Source of the DNA: Chiloscyllium plagiosum
Lineage: Eukaryota
Reading direction: 5' to 3'
Length of the DNA: 64,000 nt
Assembly (NCBI RefSeq): GCF_004010195.1
Contig: NC_057749.1
Location: 8,783,969-8,847,968, forward strand
Below are positions 1 through 63,874 of this stretch, one piece after another. Made by a program: the position numbers and the translations under genes. Position 1 is the first letter of the stretch, and each line of letters opens with the position of its first letter. The notes under the pieces are model-generated. The model had not been told where the DNA came from. It did not search any database and worked only from the letters and a program-made list of their open reading frames with translations.

Positions 1-110
1 GGCTCTCTGCCTTTATTCCTGATGAAGGGCTTTTGCCCGAAACGTCGATTTTGCCTGTCCTCGGATGCTGCCTGAATTGCTGTGCTCTTCCAGCACCACT
101 GATCCAGAAA
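1..110 (+). mobile_element. Penelope-like element terminal (pLTR) fragment, family A
   Basis: CTGATGAAGGGCTTTTGCCCGAAACGTCGA followed by ggatgctgcctg...ccagcaccac; the same module recurs several times in the window. Confidence 0.75.
19..46 (+). ncRNA. Minimal hammerhead ribozyme motif (intact core)
   Basis: CUGAUGA-A-GGGC-UUUU-GCCC-GAAAC-GUC: both core boxes, 4-bp stem II, GUC cleavage triplet. Confidence 0.75.
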
Positions 111-591
111 CTAAAATTCTGTGTCTAATTCCACTTTTTTTTTTACCTGAATTGGACCTGGAAATTTCCATGCAATAGTTAAATGTAAAATAATCCACCA
201 GACACTCCTACAGTTCCACGGTCTCTAAGGCAATGTGCTACTCCTGACAGATGGGATATTTTCAATTGGGATTCAATCAGACCTCCCATTGAATACCTCC
301 CCTCCAACATCAAGTTTGGTTTATCTGCTGTTGGCTCTTGAGCTGGGAGTTTAGCCCCGACTGTAGTCTATGCCTGTCACCATCACTGGCCATTGCAAGT
401 TCCTGTACTGTAGCATCGATGCAGCTGAGATTTTAATCCGTGTACCTTGCTGCCGGCTACAAACACCTTTGGAATGCACATTGCCTTGCTGAAACCTCTG
501 ATTCCCTTCCACCTTTGAGCTATGTATTGAAGCCCACTTTGGAGTCAAAACATTATGGCGGGCAATGGAATTACTGGTTGTCCCACTACAA

Positions 592-968
592 TGGGCGGCA
601 CGGTGGTACAGTGGTTAGCACTGCTGCCTCAGTGCCAGAGACCCGGGTTCAATTCCTGCCTCAGGCAACTGTCTGCGTGGAATTTGCACATTCTCCCGGA
701 GTCTGCGTGGGTTTCCTCCGGGTGCTCCAGTTTCCTCCCACAGTCCAAAAATATGCAGGTCAGGTGAATTGGCCATCCTAAATTGCCCGTAGTGTTAGGT
801 GAAGGGGAAATATAAGGGAATGGGTCTGGGTGGGTTACTCTTCGGAGGTGAAAATGTGTTGCTGGGACAGCGCAGCAGGTCAGGCAGCATCCAGGGAACA
901 GGAGAATCGACGTTTCAGGCATAAGCCCTTCTTCAGGAGGCCTGTTTCCACACTATAAGTAATCTAAT
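592..968 (+). mobile_element. HE1 V-SINE, interrupted by a PLE fragment
   Basis: tRNA-like head GGGCGGCACGGTGG..GTGGTTAGCAC..GGGTTCAATTCC, V-domain, tail ggcctgtttccacact..taatctaat. Confidence 0.9.
849..938 (-). mobile_element. PLE family A fragment with intact hammerhead core (909-936)
   Basis: Reverse complement reads CUGAAGA-A-GGGC-UUAU-GCCU-GAAAC-GUC; it replaces ~25 nt of the HE1 body. Confidence 0.75.
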
Positions 969-2189
969 GTGCGTTTCGTTAACACAAATGTGCTACAATT
1001 AATGAATTGGGGACACTGATCCTAAAGCACAGAGTTTAAGTGTGTATTGATTATAATGCAATTCCAGCCCCATTATTTCAATGGCGTTGCTATTACACGA
1101 TTTTCTTATAACATGGGATTGCATGAGAATTACACATTATAGCAGAACTGACTGTTCTGTCGCACTCACTAAGGCGAAACAGCATAAATTTGACATCGCG
1201 ACCATGTTATTTAATTGTCTGCAAATGTTTGATTTGTTACTTTTCTGTCTTAGTGCAAGATTTTATTATTCCCAAATCTAAGCCCCGTTACGATGGAATG
1301 AATATCTTTGGTGCAGCGGACCAGGCTGCCTCCCTGTCCAGTGTAGAGCAGTCCTTTAGAGACCAACTCATTGTGGTCTGTGTTCAGCACTTTGTAAGTG
1401 ATGGTGGAAAGGAGTGAGCTATGAACAGAGCTGATGCAGACGGAGGATGTTCCGACACTGTCTGTCATGTCTCGTTGCCCTCAGCTACAGGTTCTGTAAT
1501 CTGGGTCATTTTCTTTGGCCGGAGGTGGAATTTGGATGGATAGTGGGCTTTGGTAGGTTTGGGTTAACTCCACTGTCCGGTCTTGGGCTGAGAGAATGAC
1601 CAACATTACCATTTCGGATTCAACTGCATCTATGAACAGAAACCAAGACCACTTTCTTCGTGGGTAAAGTTTATGAACTACTCGGCTGTCGCACACAACC
1701 GAACAACCTTCCCACCACCAAATTACTGTTGTTTTTAAAGGATTTTTGGCTTATTTCCACCCAGAAATGTGGTTGCACACAACTAAGCAACCTTTCTACC
1801 ACCAAGATCCCTGTGACCGTTTTCACCTATTAACCACCATCCAACAGTCGCCCATGTAGCGTTTAAATATTTACCTACTCCGTCTTAATTATTTTTGTAA
1901 GTTTCTTGCAGCGTAAACCTGCCATTAGCCCACAAGGTTAATGTCTCTGATTCAATCACCTTTAATGTTTTCAACTTAATAATAAATCTATTATGATTCA
2001 AATTTATCATACAATACTAATGCCAGAAAAGGTTGCATTTATCATTGTGGGGTGGGGGGGGAGGTGAGGAAATGAGGTAAGAGGAGCAAAATAAAAATGA
2101 GCAGAAAATACTATGAGTTACAATTCAGGAGAGTGCATGAACTAAGTTCCTCTGCTGTTCAATTGTGGCACTTGCTGTCGAGGGCTTCT

Positions 2190-2283
2190 GAGTCAACCCT
2201 TTCAGGGATGTTATTACACACCTCTAGAACAGGTCCTCCTGACCCAGAGGTAAAAACTATACTGTGATGCCCTAAGAGCCCTT
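2190..2283 (-). mobile_element. Short tRNA-headed SINE-like repeat (related copies ~14436-14555, ~19830-19925, ~32670-32730)
   Basis: Shared motif cagaggtag..actaccactg..acaagagc; A/B-box-like elements on the minus strand. Confidence 0.45.
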
Positions 2284-2303
2284 TACCCAGTTAATGAATT
2301 CAT

Positions 2304-2895
2304 CTATTGAGTATAGGAGGTGGGATGTCACGTTGAGGACATTGGTTAGGCCACTTTTGGAATGTAGTATGCTATTCTGGTCGCCCTGCTATAGGAAGGA
2401 TGTTATGTAACTTGAAAAGGTTCAGAAAAGGTTATACAAGGATGTTACCAGGTTTGGAGGGTGTGAACGAGAGGGAGAGGCTGCATAAGCTGGGAGTATC
2501 TTCCCTGGAGTGTCAGAGATGGGAGGGTGACCTTTATAGAGGTTTATAAAATCATGAGGGACATGGATAGGGTAAATAGGCAAGGTCTTTTTCACAGGGT
2601 AGGGGAGTCCAAAACTAGAGGGCATAGGTTTAAAGTGGGAGGGGAAAGATTTAAAAGAGACCCTAAGGGGCAACATTTTCACACACAGGGTAGTGCATGT
2701 ATGGAATGAGCTGCTGGGGGAAGTGGTGGAAGCTGGTACAAATACAGCATTTAAAAGGCATTTGGATGGGTACATGAATAGGAAGGGTTTAGAGGGATAT
2801 GGGCCAGGTGCTGGCAAATGGGACTACATTAATTTAGGATATCTGGTCAGCATGGACGAGTTGGACTGAAGGGTCTGTTTCCATGCTGTATGACT
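2304..2895 (+). mobile_element. HER1/CR1 LINE 3' fragment
   Basis: Decayed ORF2 C-terminus (IEVYKIMR..DRVN..TRGH.FKV.GERFK) plus 3' UTR ending ctgtatgact. Confidence 0.9.
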
Positions 2896-3248
2896 GTCTA
2901 AGTCGATAACTCACCATTTTTAAAAAAAAGCAGGGTGATGCTGAAAGTTCTGTACCCCATTGAGAGCTGGCATCTTGACAATCCATTGGCTGTGGAGAAG
3001 GGAGCAGGCGGATTGCTCTCATGCACATGTCGATGCCCCCTGCTGCTGGCTCAGAGGACCCACCTGTCCAACAGTAACTCTGCCCTCAACCTACCAGACT
3101 GCATCCAACCTTCAGTTGCATTTCCTAGTCCACTTGGCACTTCCTTGCTTTGTGTTTGCTATTGACTGATCAGGACAATAGCATAATAAAATATAGGCAC
3201 ATTGCACTTAAGAGCAGGATATGGCCATTTGGCCCTTCGGTCTGTCCT

Positions 3249-3870
3249 ATCAGTGGACGGGGTATTGAGTATAAGAGCTGGCAAGTCATGTTAACATTGT
3301 ATAAGACATTGGTTCGGCTGCATTTAGAATACTGTGTACAGTTCTGGTCGCCACATTACTAAAAGGATGTGGACACTTTGGAGAGGGTACAGAGAAGGTT
3401 TACGAGGATGTTGCCTTGTACGGAAGGTGCTAGCTATGAAGAAAGGTTGAGTAGGTTAGGTTTATTTTCACTAGAAAAAAGGAGATTGAGGGGGACCTGA
3501 CTGAGATTTACAGAATCATGAAGGGTATAGAGAGGGTGGATAAAGACAAGCTTTTTCCCAGGGTGAAGGATTCAATAACCAGAGGTCATGCTTTCAAGGT
3601 GAGAGGTGGAAAGTTTAAGGGGGATACACACGGCAAGTACTTCACACATAGGGTGGTGGACATCTGGAACGCGTTGCCAGCAGAGGTGGTAGAGGCAGGC
3701 ATGGTAGATTCATTTAAGATGCGTCTGGACAGATATATGAGTAGGTGGAGAGCAGAGGGATACAAATGCTTAGGAATTGACTGTCAGGTTTAGACCGTAC
3801 ATTTGGATAGGCTCAGGCTTGGAGGGCCGAAGGGCCTGTTCCTGGGCTGTAGATTTTCTTCCCTGTTCTT
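3249..3870 (+). mobile_element. CR1 LINE 3' fragment
   Basis: RGIEYKSWQVMLTLYKTLVRLHLEYCVQFWSPHY; TRGHAFKV..WNALP.EVVEAG. Confidence 0.9.
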
Positions 3871-3954
3871 AGTTCTTATAATTGCTGATCTCACTCTGGT
3901 CTTAACTCTGCCTTCCTGTCCGCCCTGCAAATAATCATTGAGTCAGAATCGAAT

Positions 3955-4310
3955 CAGTTGTAATGTTACTGGATCAGTAATCCAGAGGCCAGGACAAGTG
4001 TTCCAGAGTCATGAGTTCAAATCCCACCTTGGCAACTGGGTGAATCCAGTTAATGAATAACTATTAGATCATGAAACTATCATCAGTTGTCATTTAAATT
4101 TTAAAAAAAATATGCTTCACTAATGCCCTTTAGGGAATGAAATCTGCCTCCCTTACCTGGTCTGGCCTTCATGTGACTCCAGACCCTTGGCAATGGGGTT
4201 GACTCTTAACTGCCCTCTGAAGATGGCTGAGCAAGCCACTCGATTTAAGGGCAATTAGGGACAGACCATGAATGCTGGCCTGGCCATTAATCCGTGGGTC
4301 TCAAAAAGAA
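3955..4310 (+). mobile_element. tRNA-derived SINE family 2 (SINE2-1_CM-like)
   Basis: taatccagag..gagttcaaatcccacc head; ccttacctggtctggcct.catgtgactccagaccc body. Confidence 0.75.
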
Positions 4311-4409
4311 GAGAAAGAGAACTTGCACATTAGCCACTGTGCACTACCCGTTATAGAGTCAGCCAACTCCACTGCGCGCACACCACCAGTCAGTGACTAT
4401 AAAGAAAGA

Positions 4410-4680
4410 CATGCATTTATCTATCCCCTTTGGTAGCTAGTGAATACCTCAAAGTGCTTGGTGGATAATGGTGTAGTCTGAGGGATAAATGTTATCTGGA
4501 AAGAATGCCCTTGTTCTTCTTTGAAGGAAGCACCATGGGATTTGATACATCCACCTGGTTGATAGTTAGGGCCTCGGTCTCCTATCTCGTTTGAGAGCAT
4601 TACATGAGAGCTCCAGCCCTGATTGTTGCACTCCCCTCCTGGAGTGGGACTTAAACCCAGAACCTTGTGTGGGTGTGAAA
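4410..4680 (-). mobile_element. Deu-domain SINE (SacSINE1/AmnSINE-like) remnant
   Basis: tgcatttat tail, ccatgggat..acatccacctg, ggagtgggacttaaacccagaacc B-box on the minus strand. Confidence 0.55.
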
Positions 4681-5110
4681 CGAGAGTCGGTACACACCGA
4701 TCCACATGCAAAGCACACACAAGGACAAAGGCAGCAGCGATTTCCCTGGTGTTTCAATCCCTGTCAGCTACCAGCTGATGCCTCCTCCGACCGGAACATT
4801 CCTCCAGAGGTTATTGAGGCAAATTAGCTGCACAGAAGTTTATAATCTGCTGATTTTATGGAATTCAGGCCAGTAGAGTTGGTTGGTCATGTTGTTGCAA
4901 TGTTTCATTGCCGGAGAGGGTGTGTCTGGTCAGAGAATGTGCTGATAGAAAGTTTCAGTCGAGCAAATTGCCTTCTTCCGGGCCGGCCATGACTTCTGTG
5001 GGGGATGGGCCGATTTAATGCAGAGATTAGCAGTTGCCTTCAAATTCCCAAGGGGGTATTGGGTCCAATAACGAGGAACTGAGTACAGAGATGACACACC
5101 CAGTGCCATA

Positions 5111-5280
5111 CTGAGGGAGTGCCGCACTGTCGAAGGGTCAGTGCTGAGGGAGCGCCGCACTGTCGGAGGGTCAGTGCTGAGGGAGTGCGGCACTGTCGGA
5201 GGGTCAGTGTTGAGGGAGTGCCGCACTGTCGGAGGGTCAGTGCTGAGGGAGTGCCGCACTGTCGGAGGGTCAGTGCTGAG
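5111..5280 (+). repeat. 33-bp minisatellite, 5 units plus 5 nt
   Basis: (CTGAGGGAGTGCCGCACTGTCGGAGGGTCAGTG)x5 with few substitutions. Confidence 0.95.
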
Positions 5281-5309
5281 AGATGTACTATACATCCAGA
5301 GAAGTGATA

Positions 5310-5535
5310 AAGGAAAATGCAGCAGTGAATTTTCAGCGTGCAAGATCCCTCGATTGGCGATGTGATATTGACTAGATCATCTGCTTTGGTGAGGCTGATT
5401 TAAGGATTAATATTGGTCCGGTCCATGGGGATAACTCCTTGCTGCTCTTCTTTGAAACCTTCCTCTTCCTGAGGGGACAGATGGAGCCTCCACTGGTAGT
5501 CATATCTGCAAGATGGCACCCTGACAACGTAGGAA
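5310..5535 (-). mobile_element. Deu-domain SINE remnant
   Basis: gcaagatccc, aatattgg..ggggataactcc.tgctcttc, aagatggcacc.ctgaca motifs. Confidence 0.55.
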
Positions 5536-5540
5536 TGAGA

Positions 5541-5857
5541 GGACGGTATGGTGGCACAGTGGTGAGCACTGCTGCCTCACAGCACCAGAGATCTGGGTTC
5601 AATTCCCGCCTCAGGCGACTGACTGTGTGGAGTTTGCACATTCTCCCCGTGTCTGCGTGGGTTTCCTCCGGGTGCTCCGGTTTCCTCCCACAGTCCAAAG
5701 ATGTGCAGGTCAGGTGAATTGGCCATGCTAAATTGTCCGTAGTGTTAGGGAAGGGGTTAATGTAGGGGTCTGGGTGGGCTGCGCTTCGGCGGGTCGGTGT
5801 GGACTTGTTGGGCCGAAGGGCCTGTTTCCACACTGTAAAGTAAAGTAAAAAAAAAAG
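5541..5857 (+). mobile_element. HE1 V-SINE, full length
   Basis: Head, V-domain, tail cactgtaaagtaaagt-A(n). Confidence 0.92.
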
Positions 5858-6164
5858 CTGCCCACCATTCAGTTGGATCATGGCTGGTTTATTGGTCAAA
5901 TTTCACATTCCCACCTAACCCCCACTTCTGTACAGTCCCTGATTCCCCTGTCCAACAAAGGTCTATCCTCCACCACCTTGAAAAAATCTATTTAATGATC
6001 CTGCCTTCACTATCTCCTGGAGCTGAGAGGGGTCATTCCCCTCATCTCTGCTGTAAGAAGGCAACCCTTCATGGTAAGCCAGTGTCCACTAATGCTGGAT
6101 TTTCCCACAAGGGGAAACACACTTTCCATGTCCACCTGGAGTCGGGGGGGGGGAATGGGTACAA

Positions 6165-6442
6165 GGCCCACTGGTATTATCAATAGTCTAATAATCCAGA
6201 AACCCAGATAACATTCCAGCCATAGTTCAAAAACCATTCTTGATTGTCAGGAAAACCCCATCTGGTTCACTAATGCCTTTTCGGGAAGGATTCTGCCATC
6301 CTTACCCAGTCTGGCCTACATGTCACTCTAGACCCACAGCAACGTGGTTGACTCTTAACTGCCCTCTGGGCAATTAGGGATGGGTAATAAATGCTGGCCC
6401 GGCCAGTGGCACCCACATCCTGTGAATGAGTGAATAAAAAAT
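6165..6442 (+). mobile_element. SINE family 2
   Basis: catctggttcactaatgcc..aataaatgctggcc..gaatgagtgaat tail. Confidence 0.8.
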
Positions 6443-6559
6443 AACCATTCAGGATCTTACACACTTCAATCAAGTTCCTCTCACTCTTCCATGACGAGAA
6501 GGTCAACCTGTCCAGGTTTAATACCTGTTGGTACTAGTTTCTGTTGGTTTCTGTCTTGA

Positions 6560-7040
6560 ACATTACATGCCATAATGACTTGTTTTTGTCCATTCTGCCC
6601 ATTGGGTCTTCTCTGCAAAGATCTGATCATCCTCAACTCCGCTTTCCTGCCTTTACCCTACAACACTTGATTTCCTTCCTGATTAAAAACCAGCCTTGGA
6701 CGTACTGAGCAATCCACCCTCTCCGGCTCTCTGTAGTAAAGGATTCCGCAGATTCACTATCCACTGAAAGGGAAAAAAAAAATTTCCTATCTTTGTTTTA
6801 AATGGGTGATCCCTTCTTCTGAGATTTTGCCCCTGTGCCCTAGATTCTCCCATGAGGGGACATTACCTCTCTATATCTGCCCTGTCAAGTTGTCGAAGAT
6901 GGTTGCAGGTCTCAGTAAGGTTGCCTGTCATGCTTCTAAACTCCAATGAGTACATGCTCAATCTACATAACCTCGCTTCATAAGGCAATCCCTCAAAGTT
7001 TGGAATCAACCTAGTGAACCTGTTCTGCACTGCTTCCAAA
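6560..7040 (-). mobile_element. Old CR1 LINE 3' fragment
   Basis: LEAVQNRFTRLIP..GLPYE.RL.RL.MYSLEFR in the minus-strand ORF. Confidence 0.85.
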
Positions 7041-7184
7041 GTCAGTGTGCTGTGCCTGAGTGTTGCCCTGTATGTTGGCTCATGTAGCAAGCATCACAAA
7101 GCCTGGGGTCTTGTTGAGTCAGATGTCTTGCAGTTTATGACAACACCAGTGACTTCTATCACTGCAATATCATAGACGTACACA

Positions 7185-7280
7185 GGAGTCAAAAAGTGTG
7201 GTGCTGGAAAAACACAGCCGGTCAGGCAGTATCCGAGGAGCAGGAGCCTCGACGTTTCGAGCATAAGCTCTTCATCAGAT
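7185..7280 (-). mobile_element. PLE family A fragment with intact hammerhead core (7251-7278)
   Basis: Reverse complement CUGAUGA-A-GAGC-UUAU-GCUC-GAAAC-GUC. Confidence 0.78.
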
Positions 7281-7289
7281 GCTGAATGA

Positions 7290-7405
7290 CATTCCTGATG
7301 AAGGGCTTATGTTTGAAACGTCGACTCTCCTGCTCCTCAGACGCTGCCTGACCGGCTGTGCTTTTCCAGCACCACACACTTTGATCTCCAGCATCCTCAG
7401 TCCTC
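7290..7405 (+). mobile_element. PLE family A fragment with hammerhead core (7295-7322), inverted relative to the previous fragment
   Basis: CUGAUGA-A-GGGC-UUAU-GUUU-GAAAC-GUC; stem II weakened to G-U pairs. Confidence 0.75.
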
Positions 7406-8057
7406 GCATTCTTCTAGGTGTCACGGTTCCGTGCTTGCTGATGCTACTGTATGTTACATACACATAAATGACTGAACACTACACTGAGAGTGCCTGAAGG
7501 CAGAGTGGGTACCTTTTATACCAGCATATAACACATTCTGCATCCTAAAGGAGTGCTGCTTGTCTGGTATGAAATCTATGGAACACCACAACAGAGCATG
7601 TTCAATAATAAAGCCTCTGCAGCCCTTTGGGAGAGATAATTCCAAAGATTTGCTGACTGAAGAAATTCCTCCTCATCTCCGTGCTAAGTGTCCTGCCCCT
7701 TTACTCTGAGATGATACCCATGCCATCCAGGGAAGACATTTTGTCTATCGTTGACCAGTGTTCCCTCTACTTGCGAAGGTCTATGCGGGATGACTCAATG
7801 CTGCAACCTGGTGGCTGTGTGTGGAATGTCAGAGCGACTTACACATCCCGCTGAGAGGGGCATTTGCTGCTGAGGGTGTGGCAATCTCTCAGTCCACTAC
7901 TGGGTTGGCAGTCTTTGCTTCTGTGCGCAAGCCCAAGACTGGGATTTGAACCCAGAACCTTGCGGCTTAAGAGGCAGAAGAGTGCTATCCACTGAACTCC
8001 AGCTGGCATGTCTGTGTGGGATGCAGACCCTGAGATTCAGTCTCATGTACTCATGAG

Positions 8058-13619: not shown

Positions 13620-14027
13620 CAAAAAACATCGACTGTTCGATGTGTTCCATGCTTAAGTAGTACCTGAACAATCCCAAGTGTGCCAACATCTGGACTAACA
13701 ACCAATTTCAGGAAACCAATTGATTTTGTAATGTGACACATTTCTGACTGCCAGAAGAGACGAAAAAATTCACACGAAAGGACCCATTCTCTGCAAACAG
13801 CTCTATGCTTTGCGCCGCTTTGGAGCAGAGTTCAAAATAAAATTTTTCTGAGTTCTCTTCATGACTTTTCTCAATGGCTACTTTTTTGATTTATCAGGGC
13901 CTCCTTTTTCAATCTTTATTAAGTGATAACTCCAATATCGATGATATTGTTGACTGATTTTTGGATGATTTGGACTCGCACAGAGGCAGAATTCATCAAC
14001 ATAGAAAATAGGAACAGATGTATGCTA

Positions 14028-14416
14028 GGAGAAAGTGAGCACTGCAGATGCTGGAGATCAGAGTGGAAGAGCACAGCCGGTTAGGCAGCATTCGAGGAGC
14101 AGGAGAATTGACGTTTCGAGCATAAGCTCTTCATCTGGAATGGGGGGGGGGGCCCAAGGGGGCTGAGAGATAAATGGGAAGGGGATGAGGGGAATGTGAT
14201 CACCATCACCCCCCTTCCATCTACCTATTGCATTCCCAGCTACCAGGAGGAGCTGGGGGTAATAGGTAGGTGGAGGAGGAAAAAGGTAGATGGAGGTGGG
14301 GGGTGACTGGTGATCGCATTCCCAGCTACCATCCCCCCACACCCCTCCCATTTATCTCTCAACCCTCCCCCCCTTGGGCCCCCTACATTTCTGATGAAGA
14401 GATTATGCTTGAAATG
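14028..14416. mobile_element. PLE family A, rearranged inverted structure with two degenerate hammerhead cores
   Basis: Minus arm with core CAGAUGA..GAGC/GCUC..GAAACGUC (14110-14137); plus arm with CUGAUGA at 14391. Confidence 0.72.
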
Positions 14417-14715
14417 GGAATTGAATCTGCGCTGTTGGTGTTTTCTAATGAACTTGTTCTGCGATGTTATTATGTGCCTCTGGAGCACGTGGGATTTTGA
14501 ACCTGAGACTCCTGGCTCAGAGGTGGGGATACTACCACCGTACCACAAGAGCTCTTTGAATGATGGAGGAAGCTTGAAAGCTGAATGGACTACACATGCT
14601 CTGATTATGTATGACCCAGGGCTGTCTGGTTATCCTTGCTCAATGGATAAACTCAGTGGGGTACTCATCTACTTCTTTTCAATCAACTGTTCAGGAATAT
14701 GAGCTCACATCTACA

Positions 14716-32435: not shown

Positions 32436-32540
32436 CAAATAAAAACAGAAATTGCTGGAGAAACTCAGCAGGTCTGGCAGCATCTGTGGAGAGAGGAAGC
32501 AGAGTTAATGCTTCAAGTTCTGTGGCCTTTCTTCAGAACA
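32436..32540 (-). mobile_element. PLE terminal fragment (family D), degenerate hammerhead
   Basis: aaaacagaaattgctggagaaactcagcaggtctggcagcatctg; reverse complement contains ctgaagaa..gaagc. Confidence 0.6.
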
Positions 32541-32859
32541 GAAAGCAGTTCGGACAAAGTCGTTTCTTTTCAATGACAATCAATGATTGTTGCCATGGTC
32601 ACCATCAGGGAGACAATTTGATATTTTACCGTCACCCTATTCAGTGATTGTTACCTGAGTCTGTAATGAATGGGGTTTGAACTTGCCCTTCTGGCCCAGA
32701 GATCTGGACACTGGCACTGCACCATAAAAGATGCTTTATTATGCTGAGGGTGGAGGGTTAAAAGGGTGAGTAGATAAGTGGCAATAGAGCCCAGGGTGAG
32801 ACAACAAAAGCTAGGCAGACAAAGGAAATTTTGTAAAAAACCAGGGAAGAAGAGAAGCT

Positions 32860-33904: not shown

Positions 33905-34435
33905 GAGAGGTGATGGCCTAGGGGTATTAGCAGTAGACTGTTAATCCTAGAGACCTAGCTCACAACTGGGTTCAAATCCCACTACAGCAGATGGAAAAAA
34001 ATCTGGAATTAAGAGTCTAATGGTGACTGTGAATCAGAGGGGCAGGCTAATGCTGTGGGAACATGGGTTCAAATCCAGCTACGGTGGATTTTAAATTCAA
34101 TTAATAAAAATATGGAATTGAATGTCAGTCTCTGTTATGGTGACAATGAAGCGATCATTGATTGTCAATTGTTGGAAAAACCCATCTGGTTCACTAATAT
34201 CCTTCAGGGAAGGAAATGCCATCCTTCCCTAGTCTGGCCTACAGTCAAAGAGTGTGGTGCTGGAAAAGCACAGCTGGTCAGGCAGCATCTGAGGAGCGGG
34301 GGAATTGACGTTTCAGGCATTAGCTCTTCATCATGTGACTCCAGACCTACAGTAATGTGGTTGATTCTTGTCTGCCCTCTGGGCAATAAATGTTGACTGA
34401 GCCAGCAACACGCACATCCCGTGAATGAATAATAA
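33905..34435 (+). mobile_element. SINE family 2 (two heads) with a PLE fragment inserted at 34244-34333
   Basis: tctggcctaca|PLE(-)|tgtgactccagacc; the PLE carries a near-complete hammerhead at 34307-34333. Confidence 0.78.
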
Positions 34436-34514: not shown

Positions 34515-34670
34515 TGAAAGCAACCAGTGTTGGGGATCACAGCGGGTCAGACAGCATCCGTGGAGACAGAGCAAGCTAATGTTCCGAGTCCAGATGACCC
34601 TTCATCGGAGCTGATGTGAAGTGTGGAGGGGGCAGCATTTGTGCAATAGTAATGGGGGGAAGGGGGTGAT
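34515..34670 (-). mobile_element. PLE terminal fragment (family D-like), degenerate hammerhead
   Basis: Reverse complement ccgatgaagggtcatctggactcggaacatta. Confidence 0.55.
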
Positions 34671-36257: not shown

Positions 36258-36870
36258 TGGTTCAGAAAAGATTTACAAAGGATATTGTTAGGATTGGAAA
36301 GTTTGAGCTGTAGAGAGAGGCTAAAATAGGCTGGGGCTGTTTTCCCTGGAGCATCAAAGGAGGCATGACATTGTAGAGGTTTATAAAATCATGAGGGGCA
36401 TGGACAGGGTGAATAGTCAGGTCTCTTTTCCAGGAATCCAAAGCTAGAGGACATGGGTTTAAGGTGAGAGGGGAAAGATTTAAAAGGGATCTAAAGGGCA
36501 ACGTTTTCACGCAGAGTGTGGTGCATGTATGGAGCGAGCTGCCAGAGGAAGTGGTGAAGGCCGGTATAATTACAGTATTTAAAAGATATTTGGATGGGTA
36601 CATGGATAGGAAGGGTGTAGAGGGCCAAGTGCTGACAAATGGGACGAGATTAATTTAGAACAAAAATCCAAAAGAACTGCAGATGCTGGAAATCAGAAAC
36701 AAAAGCAGAAAAAGCTGGAAAGGCTTGGCAGGTTTGGGAACATCTGTGGAGAGAAATCAGAGTTAACGTCTCCAGTTCAATGACCCTTCCGTTTAATTTA
36801 GGATATCTGGTCGGCATGGACGAGTTGGACCGAAGGGCCTCTTTTCGTGCTGTACATCACAATGACTCAA
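36258..36870 (+). mobile_element. HER1 3' fragment with a PLE fragment inserted at 36659-36792
   Basis: RGERFKRDLKGN.FTQ.VVHVW.ELPEEVV; 9-bp duplication TTAATTTAG at 36650-36658 and 36793-36801. Confidence 0.88.
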
Positions 36871-39101: not shown

Positions 39102-39229
39102 NNNNNNNNNNNNNNNNNNNNNNNNNNNNNNNNNNNNNNNNNNNNNNNNNNNNNNNNNNNNNNNNNNNNNNNNNNNNNNNNNNNNNNNNNNNNNNNNNNN
39201 NNNNNNNNNNNNNNNNNNNNNNNNNNNNN
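39102..39229. other. Assembly gap (128 N) within a C-rich ttcaa/cccc repeat
   Basis: N run with flanking repeats. Confidence 0.97.
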
Positions 39230-42350: not shown

Positions 42351-43924
42351 CCCATCTAACCTACGCTATTCCATTCTCGTCCATATGTCTATCCAATGAC
42401 CATTTAAATGCCCTTAAAGTTGGCGAGTCTCTTCCCCCCTCTTTGTTTCATGTTCAGGCCAATTTCCCCACTTAATTCCTAGCAGCCTTAGAAAATTCCT
42501 GAACCCTGACTCCATGTTCAGAAAAAGTGTGTTCGCAACACGGATCCTATCCTGTATGGCTTTGGATAGTTTTTGAACATTCTGAAACACCAAATAGGAT
42601 TTCATAAATAGTAGGCTGACTGATTTAAGATGTTTCTTGACTCAGCAACAAAGTGGGAGAAGGAAGATTTATGTATTGTGTCTTTCATTGGCCCAAAATA
42701 TAATAAACTGCATGACAACCAGTTAACGGTCTTTGAAATCGACTCACTTTGGCAATCCTGTGAATTCAAACCACCAGACTCTACATTTTTCTGGTCCATG
42801 TTTTGTTTTTGGTTGGTAACCCTTTTGAGGTGACTCCAGATATAAATTAATGATTTGTGCAAATAGTAAGGATAACTTTCCTTCTAGCTGTGTGTCATTA
42901 TTGTGCATTCTGATTGGATGACTGTCATGCCTGAAGTCTTGCATCCAGATTTTCTGATTGGACGACCCAAATGTTTTCCTCCCTAGATACAGCCTTCTGA
43001 TTGGATGGCAAATGACCAATCAGAATTGGGGAAAAAAAATTCTCACCGACCAGGCAGTGTGCCAGGAGCCCACATCCCTGGCACTATTAAACAGGTAAGG
43101 CCCTCTTTCATTCAAACTGCAGTAGCTTTAGTTTCGGCTTGTCATCAACAACAGTACCGTGGTGGTTCTGCTGCTGGGGGAGTAATCCAGGACTTGAGTT
43201 TGAATCCCAACAACTAGGGAGTTTAAGTTCATTTGAAAATTTGTCACGGTGACTGCGGGATTGTGGTAAAGGCCAATTCTAGTTCATTAAAACTCAGACA
43301 TTGCTTGAGAAACTCAGCAGCATAAGTGGAGAGAGAGAAACAAAGTTAACATTTCAAGCCCAGTGACCCTTCTTTAAGAGCTGAGTAAGATTTTCAAATA
43401 GTCCCTGGTTTTAGCTGTCCTCCAGTTTCTCCCATCCTAGCTGAGGGCGCCACAATGTCACTGGTCACCTTTCCCTCCTTCACCCTATCAGCCGCCATTC
43501 TTTCCTCTTCCCATCCTGCTCTGTTGAAGTCTCCCGGCACTGTGTCTTTCCAACTGGACTTTGGCTTTTCCCTGGCAGTCCCATCTCTCTTATTGTCCAT
43601 GCCACATTTGTCCCTGTCTTTCTCCAAACAAGAACCATTTCATTTCAGTCTCTCTTCAGCTACCTCCTTCGATTTGCCCCATAATCCTCATCGACTCCCC
43701 TCAATGCACCAATCCCTAGATTTCACAGTCCGCCATTTTACTGTGATTGATGGCAGTGTTAGCTGCTGGTGATTTTCTGTCCTGGCTCATATTGAGAATC
43801 CAATGGTTTTCTTATCTGCTCTTCTTAAAGACACGAGACCTGTTGCCGAGGTGTCATTCCACACAGCCATGAGATTCTTATCCGCATTTCCTCGGTTTCA
43901 GGGGATTGGCGAAGAGTAGGTAAC

Positions 43925-50476: not shown

Positions 50477-50590
50477 GGAGAAAGTGAGGACTGCAGATGC
50501 TGGAGATCAGAGCTGAAAATGTGTTGCTGGANNNGGGGCGGGGGCGGAGAGGTCAGGAAGAAGATTGCAGGTTAGGAAGGCGGTGCTGAG
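50477..50590 (-). mobile_element. PLE family A fragment spanning a 3-N gap (50532-50534)
   Basis: ggagaaagtgaggactgcagatgctggagatcagag terminus, same as at 14028. Confidence 0.65.
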
Positions 50591-50661: not shown

Positions 50662-51575
50662 CATTTTTTATTCCGTCGTGGGATGTGGACATCACTGGGT
50701 GGGCCAGCATTTATTTCTTGTCCCTAGTTGCCCCTTGAGTAGGTGGGGGTTAGCTGCCTTCTTGAACCGCTACACTCCACTTTCTGTGGGATGACCCACA
50801 ATGCCGCTTAGGGAGAGAATTCCAGTATTTTGACCTAGTGACAGTGAAGGAACAGCGATATATTTCTAAGTCAGGATGTTGAGTGGCTTGCAGCTGGTGG
50901 TGTTCCCATGTACCTACTGCCCTTGTTCTTCTAGATGTAAGTGGTCATGGGATTGAAAGGTGCTGAGGATCTTGGGTGAATTTCTGCAGTGCATCTTATA
51001 GAGGTCAAGGGAGCGGATTCCTGTGGATCTTGTGCCAATCAGGCAGGCTGCTTTGTCCTGAGTAGTGTCAAGCTTCTTCAGTGTTTGTGGAGCTGCACTC
51101 ATTCAGGCAAGTGGGGAGTATTCCATCACACTCCTGACTTGGGCCTTGTCCATGGCGGGCAGGCTTTGGGGAGTCAAAAGGTGAGTTACCTTAGTATTCC
51201 TAGCCTCTGACCTGCTCTCATAGCCGCTGTGTTTATGTGGTGAGTCCAGTTGAGTTTCTGATCAATGATAACTCCCAGGATGATGATAGTGGGGGATTCA
51301 GTGATGGTAACACTCTTGAATGACAGGAGGCGGTGGTTAGATTGACACTTATTGGAGATAGTCGTTGCCTGGCATTTGTGTGGCACAAATGTTACTTACC
51401 ACTTGTTGGCCCAAGCCTGGGTATTGTCCAGATCTTACTGCATTTGAACATGGACTACCTGAGTATCTGAGTAATCGCAAATGGTGCTGAACAGTGTGCA
51501 ATCATCGCCGAACATGCCTACTTATGATCTTAAGATGGAGGAAAGGTCATTAGTGAAGCAGATAGAAATGGTTGG
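50662..51575 (-). mobile_element. Second-family CR1/L2-like LINE 3' ~900 bp
   Basis: PHKCQATTISNK..TITESPTI.ILGVIIDQKLNWTHHINT.A.RAGQRLGILR; TLKKLDT.QDKAACLIG. Confidence 0.85.
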
Positions 51576-55574: not shown

Positions 55575-56310
55575 GTTCTGTACTTGGCTTGGTAATCCAG
55601 AGGCCTAAGCTAATGCTCTGGGAACATGGGTTCAACTCTCACCAAGTGGATGGAATTTGAACTCAGTTGCTCAAAAAAGTGGGACTTTAAAACTAGTCTG
55701 AGTATTGACGACCATGACAACTCTCCATTGAGTTTTGGAAAACCTATCTGATTCACTCCCTGAGGGAGGTGAAATAACTGTCACTATGTCACCCTTTAAT
55801 TACTTGTGCAAAGTACACTGGCTTTGGTCACTGTGATGCGATTGACTCCCAATTGCCCTCCAAAATGGTTGAGCATCTTCCTGATGAACAGCCATATCAA
55901 CTCTCTGCTGCTCCGCAGGTGCTGCCTGACCTGCTGTGCTTTTCCAGTACCATACTACTCGACTCTCCAGCATCTGCAGTCCTCACTTTCTCCTGGCTGT
56001 GGTCAGTCAGCTCGGAGTCAGTCCCGGAGCTGAGGGGATTTGAAATCCCATGTTAATGTTGATCAGCCAGTGCCTCCTGGTCTGTCCAGGTTAACAAACT
56101 CAGTCAGGGATCTCGATGTCAATGGGGTCCACCTGGTTCCAATCACTACAGCAAGGAAATCTGCCATCCTTTCCTGGTCTGGCTTATATGTGACCCCAGA
56201 GTCTCAGTAATGTGATTGACTCTCAGTTGCCCTCCGAAATGGTCAAGCAAGCAACTCCATTTAAGGGTGATTCAGGGATGGGCAACAAGTACTCACCTTA
56301 CCTGCAATGA
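55575..56310 (+). mobile_element. Fragmented SINE family 2 pieces with a PLE fragment at 55877-55993
   Basis: taatccagagg..gggttcaa; cctgatgaa..gctgcctgacctgctgtgc..ccagcatctgcagtcctcactttctcc. Confidence 0.6.
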
Positions 56311-62642: not shown

Positions 62643-62896
62643 GCAGGTGGGTGAAGTGAAATGTGCCATAACGTTTGGCAAAGGTTGGGCAAAACCAGAG
62701 AGAGAAAGCATGGCCCTGTTTCCTCTTGCCTTCACATCCCTCATCGCCTTTTAACACTCGACAGTTGAGCACCGACACGGTGGAGTTTGCGACTGAATCA
62801 TGCCACATTCAGTGCCACATGGAGGTCATTCAGCCCATCGAGTATGAAGCCAGTTCTTATGAAGAGAAATCCAGTCAACCCTATCATCGATTCCGC

Positions 62897-63075
62897 TGGG
62901 CGAAAGTGAGGACCACAGATGCTGAAGATTGGTGCACACTCAGCCCCATCCACCCTCCTATTTATCTCTCTACCCCCGAGGCTCCCAACCTCATTCCTGA
63001 TGAAGAGCCTATGCTGGAAAAGTTGATTCTTCTGCCTGACCTGCTGTGCTTTTCCAGCACCACACTCTCAACCTC
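62897..63075 (+). mobile_element. PLE family A fragment with a short inverted terminus and degenerate hammerhead (from 62997)
   Basis: gaaagtgaggacc.cagatgctg (inverted), then ctgatgaagagcctatgctggaaaa..ccagcaccacact. Confidence 0.65.
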
Positions 63076-63874
63076 TACCATCCCCACCCCCAACACGTCC
63101 TTTCCCTTTTTCTCTCCAAATGTTTACCCGATTTCCTTTTGAACATTAATTTGAATCTGTGTCCACCTCAATATCAATCCTCCACACACTTGTGTTTCTC
63201 CTTTGCCACCTCAAGTTCTTTTGTCAACATGGTGTTAAATCTAGAACACCTGATTATTCATTCTTTAGCCATTTGAAAACATTTCCATTTATTCTGGCTC
63301 CATCCTTCATCACTTTATGCATCAAATCACCTCCGCTTTCACAGCTCTTGGGAGAGCTATCCAAAAGTTCTTTGTAAATCCTTGTCCCTACAGTCACCCT
63401 TGCAAACATTTTCTGAGCCCTCTATAAACTTTCCACAATTTCTGGTACCATAGTTACGGTGGAGTCTATAGGTTCAGCCAAACCTCTTTATTTTTGTCCT
63501 CTTTATCCGTTTTTTTGTAAAGCCTATTTGAAAGCTCAATTTCTGAATGACCCTTTATAGCCACAACTTTGTCAGACAATTGCATGCAGCTTGGTTGTTC
63601 CTATCATGCGAGCAGCTCTGCTTCTTTGTTTCTTTTTCCCAAGGGCTCTTGCGTGTTCTCGAGGGAAGCTTTATCATTTTCTCGGGCTACCTTTTGGATT
63701 TCAGGGTACTCTTTTCAACTCTCTAACTCATTTATTAGGTGAAACTGTCTCATATGCTGTCTGTCTTTGAATTGTCATAAGGAGAATTTGGACTCCTTCA
63801 AAACAGGTTTGGCAGAATTCATCAGTATTCTCAATTATCAGCAGTCCATCAAACTCGAAGCTGCCACACAGACG

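Follow-up and report, generated by a model that had tools for sequence, protein, structure and literature searches.

Whether hammerhead motifs scattered through a genome are working ribozymes or relics of the elements that carried them is a question raised by the first 7.3 kb of a 64,000-nucleotide (nt) stretch of the Chiloscyllium plagiosum genome (NC_057749.1, positions 8,783,969 to 8,847,968 of the forward strand; hereafter the window). Four 28-nt motifs with the letters of a minimal hammerhead ribozyme lie between positions 19 and 7322. An earlier note on this DNA had assigned them to termini of Penelope-like elements (PLEs) and had proposed that some dispersed copies may still cleave host transcripts. 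Our analysis favours, with a probability of about 0.85, the explanation that a PLE family left these motifs behind as dispersed copies, mostly dead on arrival, of its 3'-terminal non-coding module. Besides the minimal hammerhead, the module would comprise an AC-rich hairpin region and, optionally, a tail, and helix III would be formable only between two copies, through ACGU. The hammerhead would be kept by selection in a few source elements, or hitch-hike there. Insertion would proceed from unprocessed RNA, with reverse transcriptase (RT) initiating internally near the AC-rich hairpin as it does in vitro for a PLE of Anolis, and the dispersed copies would be catalytically inert.

The four 28-nt strings were confirmed by direct reading, with positions, strands and letters exactly as the earlier note gave them (Table 1). 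The pattern CTGANGA-N13-GAAACGTC, searched with up to two mismatches, occurred eight times in the window, compared with a mean of 0.24 in 100 dinucleotide-preserving shuffles of the window, none of which reached eight. The four named sites matched with 0 mismatches, and one of the eight matches, at 51521, was unrelated sequence. A chance origin of the motifs is ruled out by these counts; the excess arises because the sites are homologous copies of one repeat, the four being 80-88% alike over 81-90 nt. All four, which had been chosen for intact cores, carry the letters used here to define a hammerhead core (C3-U4-G5-A6-N7-G8-A9, G12-A13-A14, A15.1-U16.1 and a cleavage triplet NUH). Helix II consists of four Watson-Crick pairs in copies a and c. 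In copy b, the closing pair is a G10.1-U11.1 wobble and N7 is A, and in copy d, stem II contains three G-U pairs and is missing from the minimum-energy fold. The description of the motifs as intact thus holds for the core letters but not for stem II of copy d or the closing pair of copy b. Variation in these four copies fell on N7, the loop, positions 10.2/11.2 and G-U wobbles with a constant core, just as had been noticed.

The motifs were compared with the minimal hammerheads of metazoan PLEs, for which three features are reported: 15.2-16.2 is palindromic, G10.1 pairs with C11.1, and one extra nucleotide stands between 9 and 10.1 (Cervera & De la Pena 2014, PMC4209133). That paper relates the extra nucleotide to De la Pena & Flores 2001. 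All four motifs contain GAAAC-GUC with ACGU, as well as an A following A9; the full set of three features, G10.1-C11.1 included, is present in copies a and c. As in the motifs reported there, CUGANGA and GAAA boxes are found, GUC directly follows GAAAC, a helix III loop is absent, and the motifs are mostly single and dispersed, sometimes in close opposite-strand pairs, and in very high copy number (PMC4209133). Helix II has 4 bp here, unlike the 7-8 bp reported for Schistosoma PLEs, and unlike the pseudo-long terminal repeat (pseudo-LTR) PLE hammerheads of that report, no flanking open reading frame (ORF) for RT and endonuclease (EN) was seen in the window (PMC4209133). The small PLE-associated hammerheads of Lunse, Weinberg & Breaker, as summarized in a review (PMC6765202), share the minimal stem III and the need for a second copy. 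These results indicate that the motif family is a further instance of the already described PLE minimal hammerhead class, and the earlier assignment to the minimal type I form with an extra nucleotide after A9 agrees with the published class. Cartilaginous fish are unnamed in the main text and two of the three supplementary files of Cervera & De la Pena 2014 (PMC4209133), and no explicit description of a minimal-hammerhead PLE in sharks was found in the literature searched.

The copies in the window were then collected with a profile built from ten of them, counting matches at E values up to 1 across the 64 kb. Fifteen matches were obtained, 11 belonging to the hammerhead-bearing repeat (family 1) and four to an older sister subfamily (Table 1). 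Five further family-1 copies (e, f, g, e2 and h) show core lesions or truncations; copy f begins at U4 and its C3 is host sequence, and therefore it never had a complete core. The repeat that hosts copy f has relatives at 4127-4219 and 6276-6368. The span 19-7322 proved to hold four separate fragments among short interspersed nuclear elements (SINEs) and a 33-nt tandem array. Three of the four named motifs lie in solo units of ~90-135 nt (b, c and d) and one in a long-form copy (a), whose positions 1-18, ahead of the motif, are similar to the upstream part of copy g. Since one of them sits within a SINE, two form an inverted pair, and no RT or GIY-YIG domain was found among the 150 longest open frames, the span does not represent the termini of one element. 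The arms of the inverted pair c/d (7189-7278 and 7295-7384) are 88% complementary and 16 nt apart, and copies e and e2 form a second head-to-head inverted pair. At the insertion site of copy b, ~26 nt of the SINE are missing, as judged from a second SINE copy (5541-5860). Copy b abuts this tRNA-derived SINE, and the motif strand was also considered as the antisense of a SINE or long interspersed nuclear element 3' tail; this was rejected on the second SINE copy, which shows that b was inserted into the SINE.

In the hammerhead sense, a unit consists of an optional C-rich upstream part, CATTC, the 28-nt motif, a body of ~60 nt and one of two endings. The upstream part, of ~55 nt or more, is found in copies a, e, e2 and g. 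At its end, the body has a GUGCU-loop-AGCAC hairpin and then CACAC; copies b, c and f stop ~10 nt past the hairpin, and copies d, e, h and the 50477 piece extend ~35 nt more. The 5' ends vary, lying at about -55 or beyond or at the motif edge. In descriptions of PLE insertions, copies are truncated at the 5' end, lie next to an inverted copy that is likewise truncated, and may end in a tail of 30-40 bp (Craig et al. 2021; Frangieh et al. 2024, PMC11167929), and all of these features are present among the window copies. In PAc, the Poseidon element of Anolis carolinensis, an AC-rich stem-loop ~100-110 nt past the hammerhead reportedly holds two neighbouring start sites for RT, which enclose the optional tail of 30-40 bp (PMC11167929). 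The family resembles PAc in its two 3' ends ~35 nt apart, just past the GUGCU/AGCAC hairpin and CACAC, and in that no window copy (of ~13) starts at the hammerhead cleavage site. It differs in that the ORF of PAc is reported to begin at stem II, whereas the core AUG here meets a stop after 17 codons; the family is known from sequence alone.

Table 1. Copies of the hammerhead-bearing repeat and its sister subfamily in the window, and segments of the genome-wide depth profile over copy e (depths in run X1, to be taken as orders of magnitude)
Feature	Positions	Strand	Motif	Description
Copy a	1..124	+	19-46, CUGAUGA-A-GGGC-UUUU-GCCC-GAAAC-GUC	Long form, truncated by window start; motif followed by body with GUGCU/AGCAC hairpin; profile positions 2-124
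Copy b	842..939	-	909-936, CUGAAGA-A-GGGC-UUAU-GCCU-GAAAC-GUC	Short unit without tail; within tRNA-derived SINE (593-975)
Copy c	7186..7279	-	7251-7278, CUGAUGA-A-GAGC-UUAU-GCUC-GAAAC-GUC	Short unit; 10.2-11.2 is A-U; left arm of head-to-head inverted pair
Copy d	7288..7418	+	7295-7322, CUGAUGA-A-GGGC-UUAU-GUUU-GAAAC-GUC	Short unit with tail-like extension; right arm of inverted pair
Copy e	14024..14192	-	14110-14137, U4 to A	Long form; ~55 nt upstream, internally deleted body, tail
Copy e2	14335..14422	+	~14391-14417, damaged (three changes)	Inverted partner of e; upstream part and motif; ends near position 17
Copy f	34243..34335	-	34307-34334, from U4 on	Short unit cleanly within another repeat; 10.2-11.2 is A-C mismatch
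Copy h	55869..55997	+	~55880, broken by internal deletion	Unit with tail
Copy g	62940..63078	+	62997-63024, damaged (11.1 G, 15.2 A, 17 U)	Long form; 16-nt body deletion
Copy t	50477..50531	-		Tail and body end only; cut by 3-N gap 50532-50534
Inverted tail fragment	62896-62930	opposite to g		Directly upstream of copy g
Sister copy	32452-32543	-		Older, diverged
Sister copy	34531-34611	-		Older, diverged
Sister copy	36674-36789	-		Older, diverged
Sister copy	43302-43379	-		Older, diverged
Depth, tail	14035-14051			Summed word depth 5.8 million
Depth, body and 3' half of motif	14086-14119			2.6-2.7 million
Depth, 5' half of motif	14120-14136			0.62 million
Depth, upstream part	14137-14187			54-75 thousand
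Depth, beyond element	from 14188			Mostly <12 thousand

Furthermore, the abundance of the repeat was estimated genome-wide. Contig pieces from two DNA runs of the same organism (X1 and X2) were matched to 13950-14450, with copy e as the reference, at a likeness of at least 80%, giving 40,848 and 31,231 pieces, respectively. Because the summed depths are weighted by k-mers and favour the reference copy, only their orders of magnitude count. The tail has about twice the depth of the body, and depth falls stepwise towards the upstream part (Table 1). No drop was observed at the cleavage site 14109/14110, with 2.6-2.7 million on either side in X1. Among the loose ends listed, a sharp 3' terminus with random flanks was observed at 14026-14028 (2,044 contigs in X1), and the best-supported 5' edges were 14135 in X1 (406 contigs) and 14142 in X2 (371 contigs). 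The loose consensus at the X1 edge holds six more letters, which complete CATTC and the motif start, and is random thereafter. Agreement of the flank consensus was only 0.33-0.35, and the AT-rich look of the flanks was not used as evidence. Some contigs carry two tandem tails (14025-14063), with a joint from 14061 to 14027 and 30-34 letters between.

Several results weigh against this explanation and are gathered here. No RT or GIY-YIG domain was found in a Pfam scan of the 150 longest (at least 81 aa) of the 243 stop-to-stop frames of at least 70 aa, which returned two chance-level matches only. The PLE link here rests on insertion anatomy and the literature, with no coding partner in the window; a partner element encoding RT and EN may lie elsewhere in the genome. 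Rfam hammerhead models gave no match at gathering score in the whole window and none at E values up to 10 in 1-8000. This is a likely outcome for a motif that has no helix III. A hammerhead is expected to have a helix I of several bp, and the published metazoan PLE consensus has 4-5 bp (PMC4209133); unlike these, copies a, b, c and d have 2, 2, 1 and 2 contiguous pairs, respectively, although the same paper reports a helix I of 2 bp in D. virilis. The reference bias of the depths, given above, counts on the same side, as does the conservation of the core. Across nine copies, 5/105 cells at the 12 core positions were off the column majority, compared with 64/468 in the body (Fisher p 0.012) and 18/119 at non-core motif positions (p 0.014). 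These results suggest that there was likely some constraint on the core somewhere in the family history. As the core is rich in A and G and has just one CpG-linked position, lower mutability may contribute to the difference.

The sharp 5' edges bear on a further reading, in which the short units are full-length copies of a short RNA with its 5' end just upstream of the hammerhead, and not random truncations. Of the nine family-1 copies that keep the 5' part, five (b, c, d, f and h) begin within about -11 to +1 of C3. Copies b and f are flanked on both sides by recognisable host repeat, both arms of c/d end at the same edge, and the best-supported 5'-side loose ends listed genome-wide (14135 and 14142) continue at random. 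In addition, copies e, e2 and g share ATTTATCTCTC ~29-36 nt upstream of this edge. Two sources are proposed for such an RNA: transcription that starts in the pseudo-LTR, or a non-autonomous retrozyme- or SINE-like derivative that PLE proteins would mobilise. PLE-related retrozymes, including monomer derivatives, have been reported in vertebrates, with one chondrichthyan among them (Li et al. 2026 preprint). Like these non-LTR retrozymes, which are small retroelements with circular RNA (Cervera & De la Pena 2020), the units are short and non-coding, carry a type I hammerhead, are kin to the PLE pseudo-LTR and occur as dispersed monomer derivatives. However, non-LTR retrozymes are defined by direct tandem repeats, and no direct tandem of hammerhead-bearing units was found in the window, where the nearest same-strand motifs are 6.3-7.3 kb apart; membership in that group therefore fails. 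The reading draws on nine directly inspected copies, and part of the depth drop may be due to a C-rich upstream part that aligns poorly. We regard the short RNA, together with the two sources proposed for it, as fairly unlikely.

The same edge, which is sharp, shared by many copies and within a few nt of C3, suggests a related mechanism, in which the RNA has a defined 5' end ~0-5 nt ahead of the hammerhead and the short units are complementary DNAs that ran off at this end. The PLE transcript would carry the internal RT start site twice, and initiation at the 5'-proximal one would give 'strong-stop-like' products of ~95-135 nt with the hammerhead, hairpin and tail only. Very many of these products would be inserted, at times from both strands of the target, to give pairs such as c/d, and ATTTATCTCTC ~30 nt upstream with CCATTCC at the edge would be the core promoter of the pseudo-LTR. 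If so, the hammerhead would mark the first nucleotides of the element RNA and not a processing site. We consider this mechanism rather unlikely. In the upstream parts of copies e, e2 and g (14138-14192(-), 14335-14389(+) and 62940-62996(+)), ATTTATCTCTC stands before the short-unit start (CATTC), and the two together look TATA-like plus initiator-like, in these three copies only.

Selection on the hammerhead was assessed from stem II and from the genome-wide variants. In eight window copies, 29/32 stem II cells (90.6%) were standard pairs, compared with 87.8% in shuffles. A double change was found at one of the four pairs, 10.2-11.2, which is A-U in four copies, G-C in two, G-U in one and unpaired in one. 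The covariation score was equalled or exceeded by 134/500 shuffles and was not significant. The A-U state is common to copies c, e, g and e2, and therefore marks a subfamily and represents one event. The three G-U pairs of copy d trace to the 3' strand, where three sites differ by C-to-T, and look like C-to-T decay. Thus, the letter pattern earlier described as compensatory stem II changes exists, but it comes down to one pair and one event, with shuffles scoring as high. The proposal that master elements were selected for the fold is compatible with the conserved core and with a hammerhead-like head in the sister subfamily, but stem II lends it no statistical weight.

Genome-wide variants were taken at a share of at least 5% of depth on the hammerhead strand, among the variants listed, in X1 unless stated. 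U4 was U in 98%, the A of copy e being private to that copy, and U at N7 was replaced by A in 10% (26% in X2). A variant at the second loop position reached 10%. Across three contig runs, 10.2 was G in 53-68% and 11.2 was C in 73-85%. G1.1 was G in 65-85%. At the CpG sites, C11.1 was changed to U in 10.7%, the catalytic G12 to A in 12.7%, C15.2 to U in 15% and G16.2 to A in 20%. These results indicate that the catalytic G12 is lost about as often, to the order of magnitude, as other CpG positions, which is what copies free of selection would show.

The hammerhead letters might also have been kept in the source elements for a reason other than cleavage, either as an RNA part bound by the element protein or by hitch-hiking. 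Core mutants of PAc are reported to insert normally in vitro, with no reads beginning or ending at the cut site (PMC11167929), and PLE clades without hammerheads are described as proliferating well, so that hammerheads may be parasites of PLEs (Craig et al. 2021). Consistent with this, the tail and not the hammerhead has the highest genome-wide depth (5.8 compared with 2.6 million), and the tail motif is also kept in a diverged sister copy. By contrast, the exact catalytic core persists whether stem II has G-C or A-U at 10.2-11.2, the sister subfamily retains a hammerhead-like head, and published PLE hammerheads cleave as dimers or with protein, cleavage of the PAc hammerhead appearing to be protein-assisted (PMC11167929). 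Maintenance for a reason other than cleavage appears doubtful on balance.

We also examined whether the copies could cleave. Helix III is absent from the motif and the palindromic ACGU is present; two sense copies must therefore pair through ACGU. For the four named motifs (a to d), the double-hammerhead fold had predicted energies of -13.3, -8.1, -1.3 and +2.7 kcal/mol, compared with dimer minima of -24.6, -20.9, -28.2 and -17.3 kcal/mol, placing the active dimer fold 11-27 kcal/mol above the minimum in a nearest-neighbour model that leaves out tertiary contacts. Stem II is formed in the minimum-energy folds of copies a, b and c. However, in the monomer minimum of copies a and c, U4-G8 is paired with C15.2-G1.1 and the cleavage site is hidden. 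If transcribed, the c/d pair (7185-7390) would fold into a single near-perfect 90-bp hairpin (-162 kcal/mol) and would be a possible source of double-stranded RNA. The only Rfam matches around 7199-7372 were to microRNA-precursor models, far below gathering (33.9 compared with 90 bits, and 31 compared with 81 bits); these matches reflect the c/d inverted repeat, and a microRNA was rejected. In published work, single minimal hammerheads gave no detectable cleavage and dimers low cleavage (Cervera & De la Pena 2014, PMC4209133).

Positions 13950-14054 are covered with 0 differences, at a depth of 11.3, by a 462-nt contig that crosses from unique flank into the tail of copy e; the run from which it comes is guessed to be RNA. 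This contig may represent a host transcript running through copy e. Run X9 is RNA only by guess, and since its depth profile follows the shape seen in the DNA runs, it says nothing about expression of the units. That some dispersed copies are still active ribozymes cutting host transcripts that cross them is very improbable: the core letters are intact in four copies, three of these form stem II, and the neighbourhood of copy e may be transcribed, but each copy would need a second sense copy, the nearest same-strand neighbours being 6.3-7.3 kb away and c/d being inverted, helix I has 1-2 bp, the dimer fold is disfavoured, and G12 is decaying. Cleavage of host transcripts by dispersed copies is thus unsupported, and the earlier suggestion to that effect is not upheld.

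Read as dispersed copies of a PLE 3' module, the motifs place a further vertebrate genome among those where the PLE minimal hammerhead is very common. The inserted copies retain the whole hammerhead and none begin at the cut site, which amounts to a natural experiment. Whole-motif copies agree with the in vitro work in which unprocessed RNA is the template for insertion. What is new here is modest, namely these whole-motif copies without cut-site starts and the sharp shared 5' edge near C3. For genome annotation, such motifs should be masked as repeat relics, not annotated as ribozyme genes.

The sister subfamily has a hammerhead-like head with a GGGTC-type stem II strand and with GTT replacing GTC; core lesions were found in 4/4 copies, and the copy at 36674 retains the tail motif CCAGCATCTGCAG. 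The window also contains an abundant tRNA-derived SINE family with a tRNA-like head at 593-975(+), 5541-5860(+) and at least 15 further places. Assembly gaps (N runs) are located at 39102-39229 and 50532-50534. The tandem array, at 5079-5316, comprises six 33-nt units, of which the inner copies are 93-96% alike.

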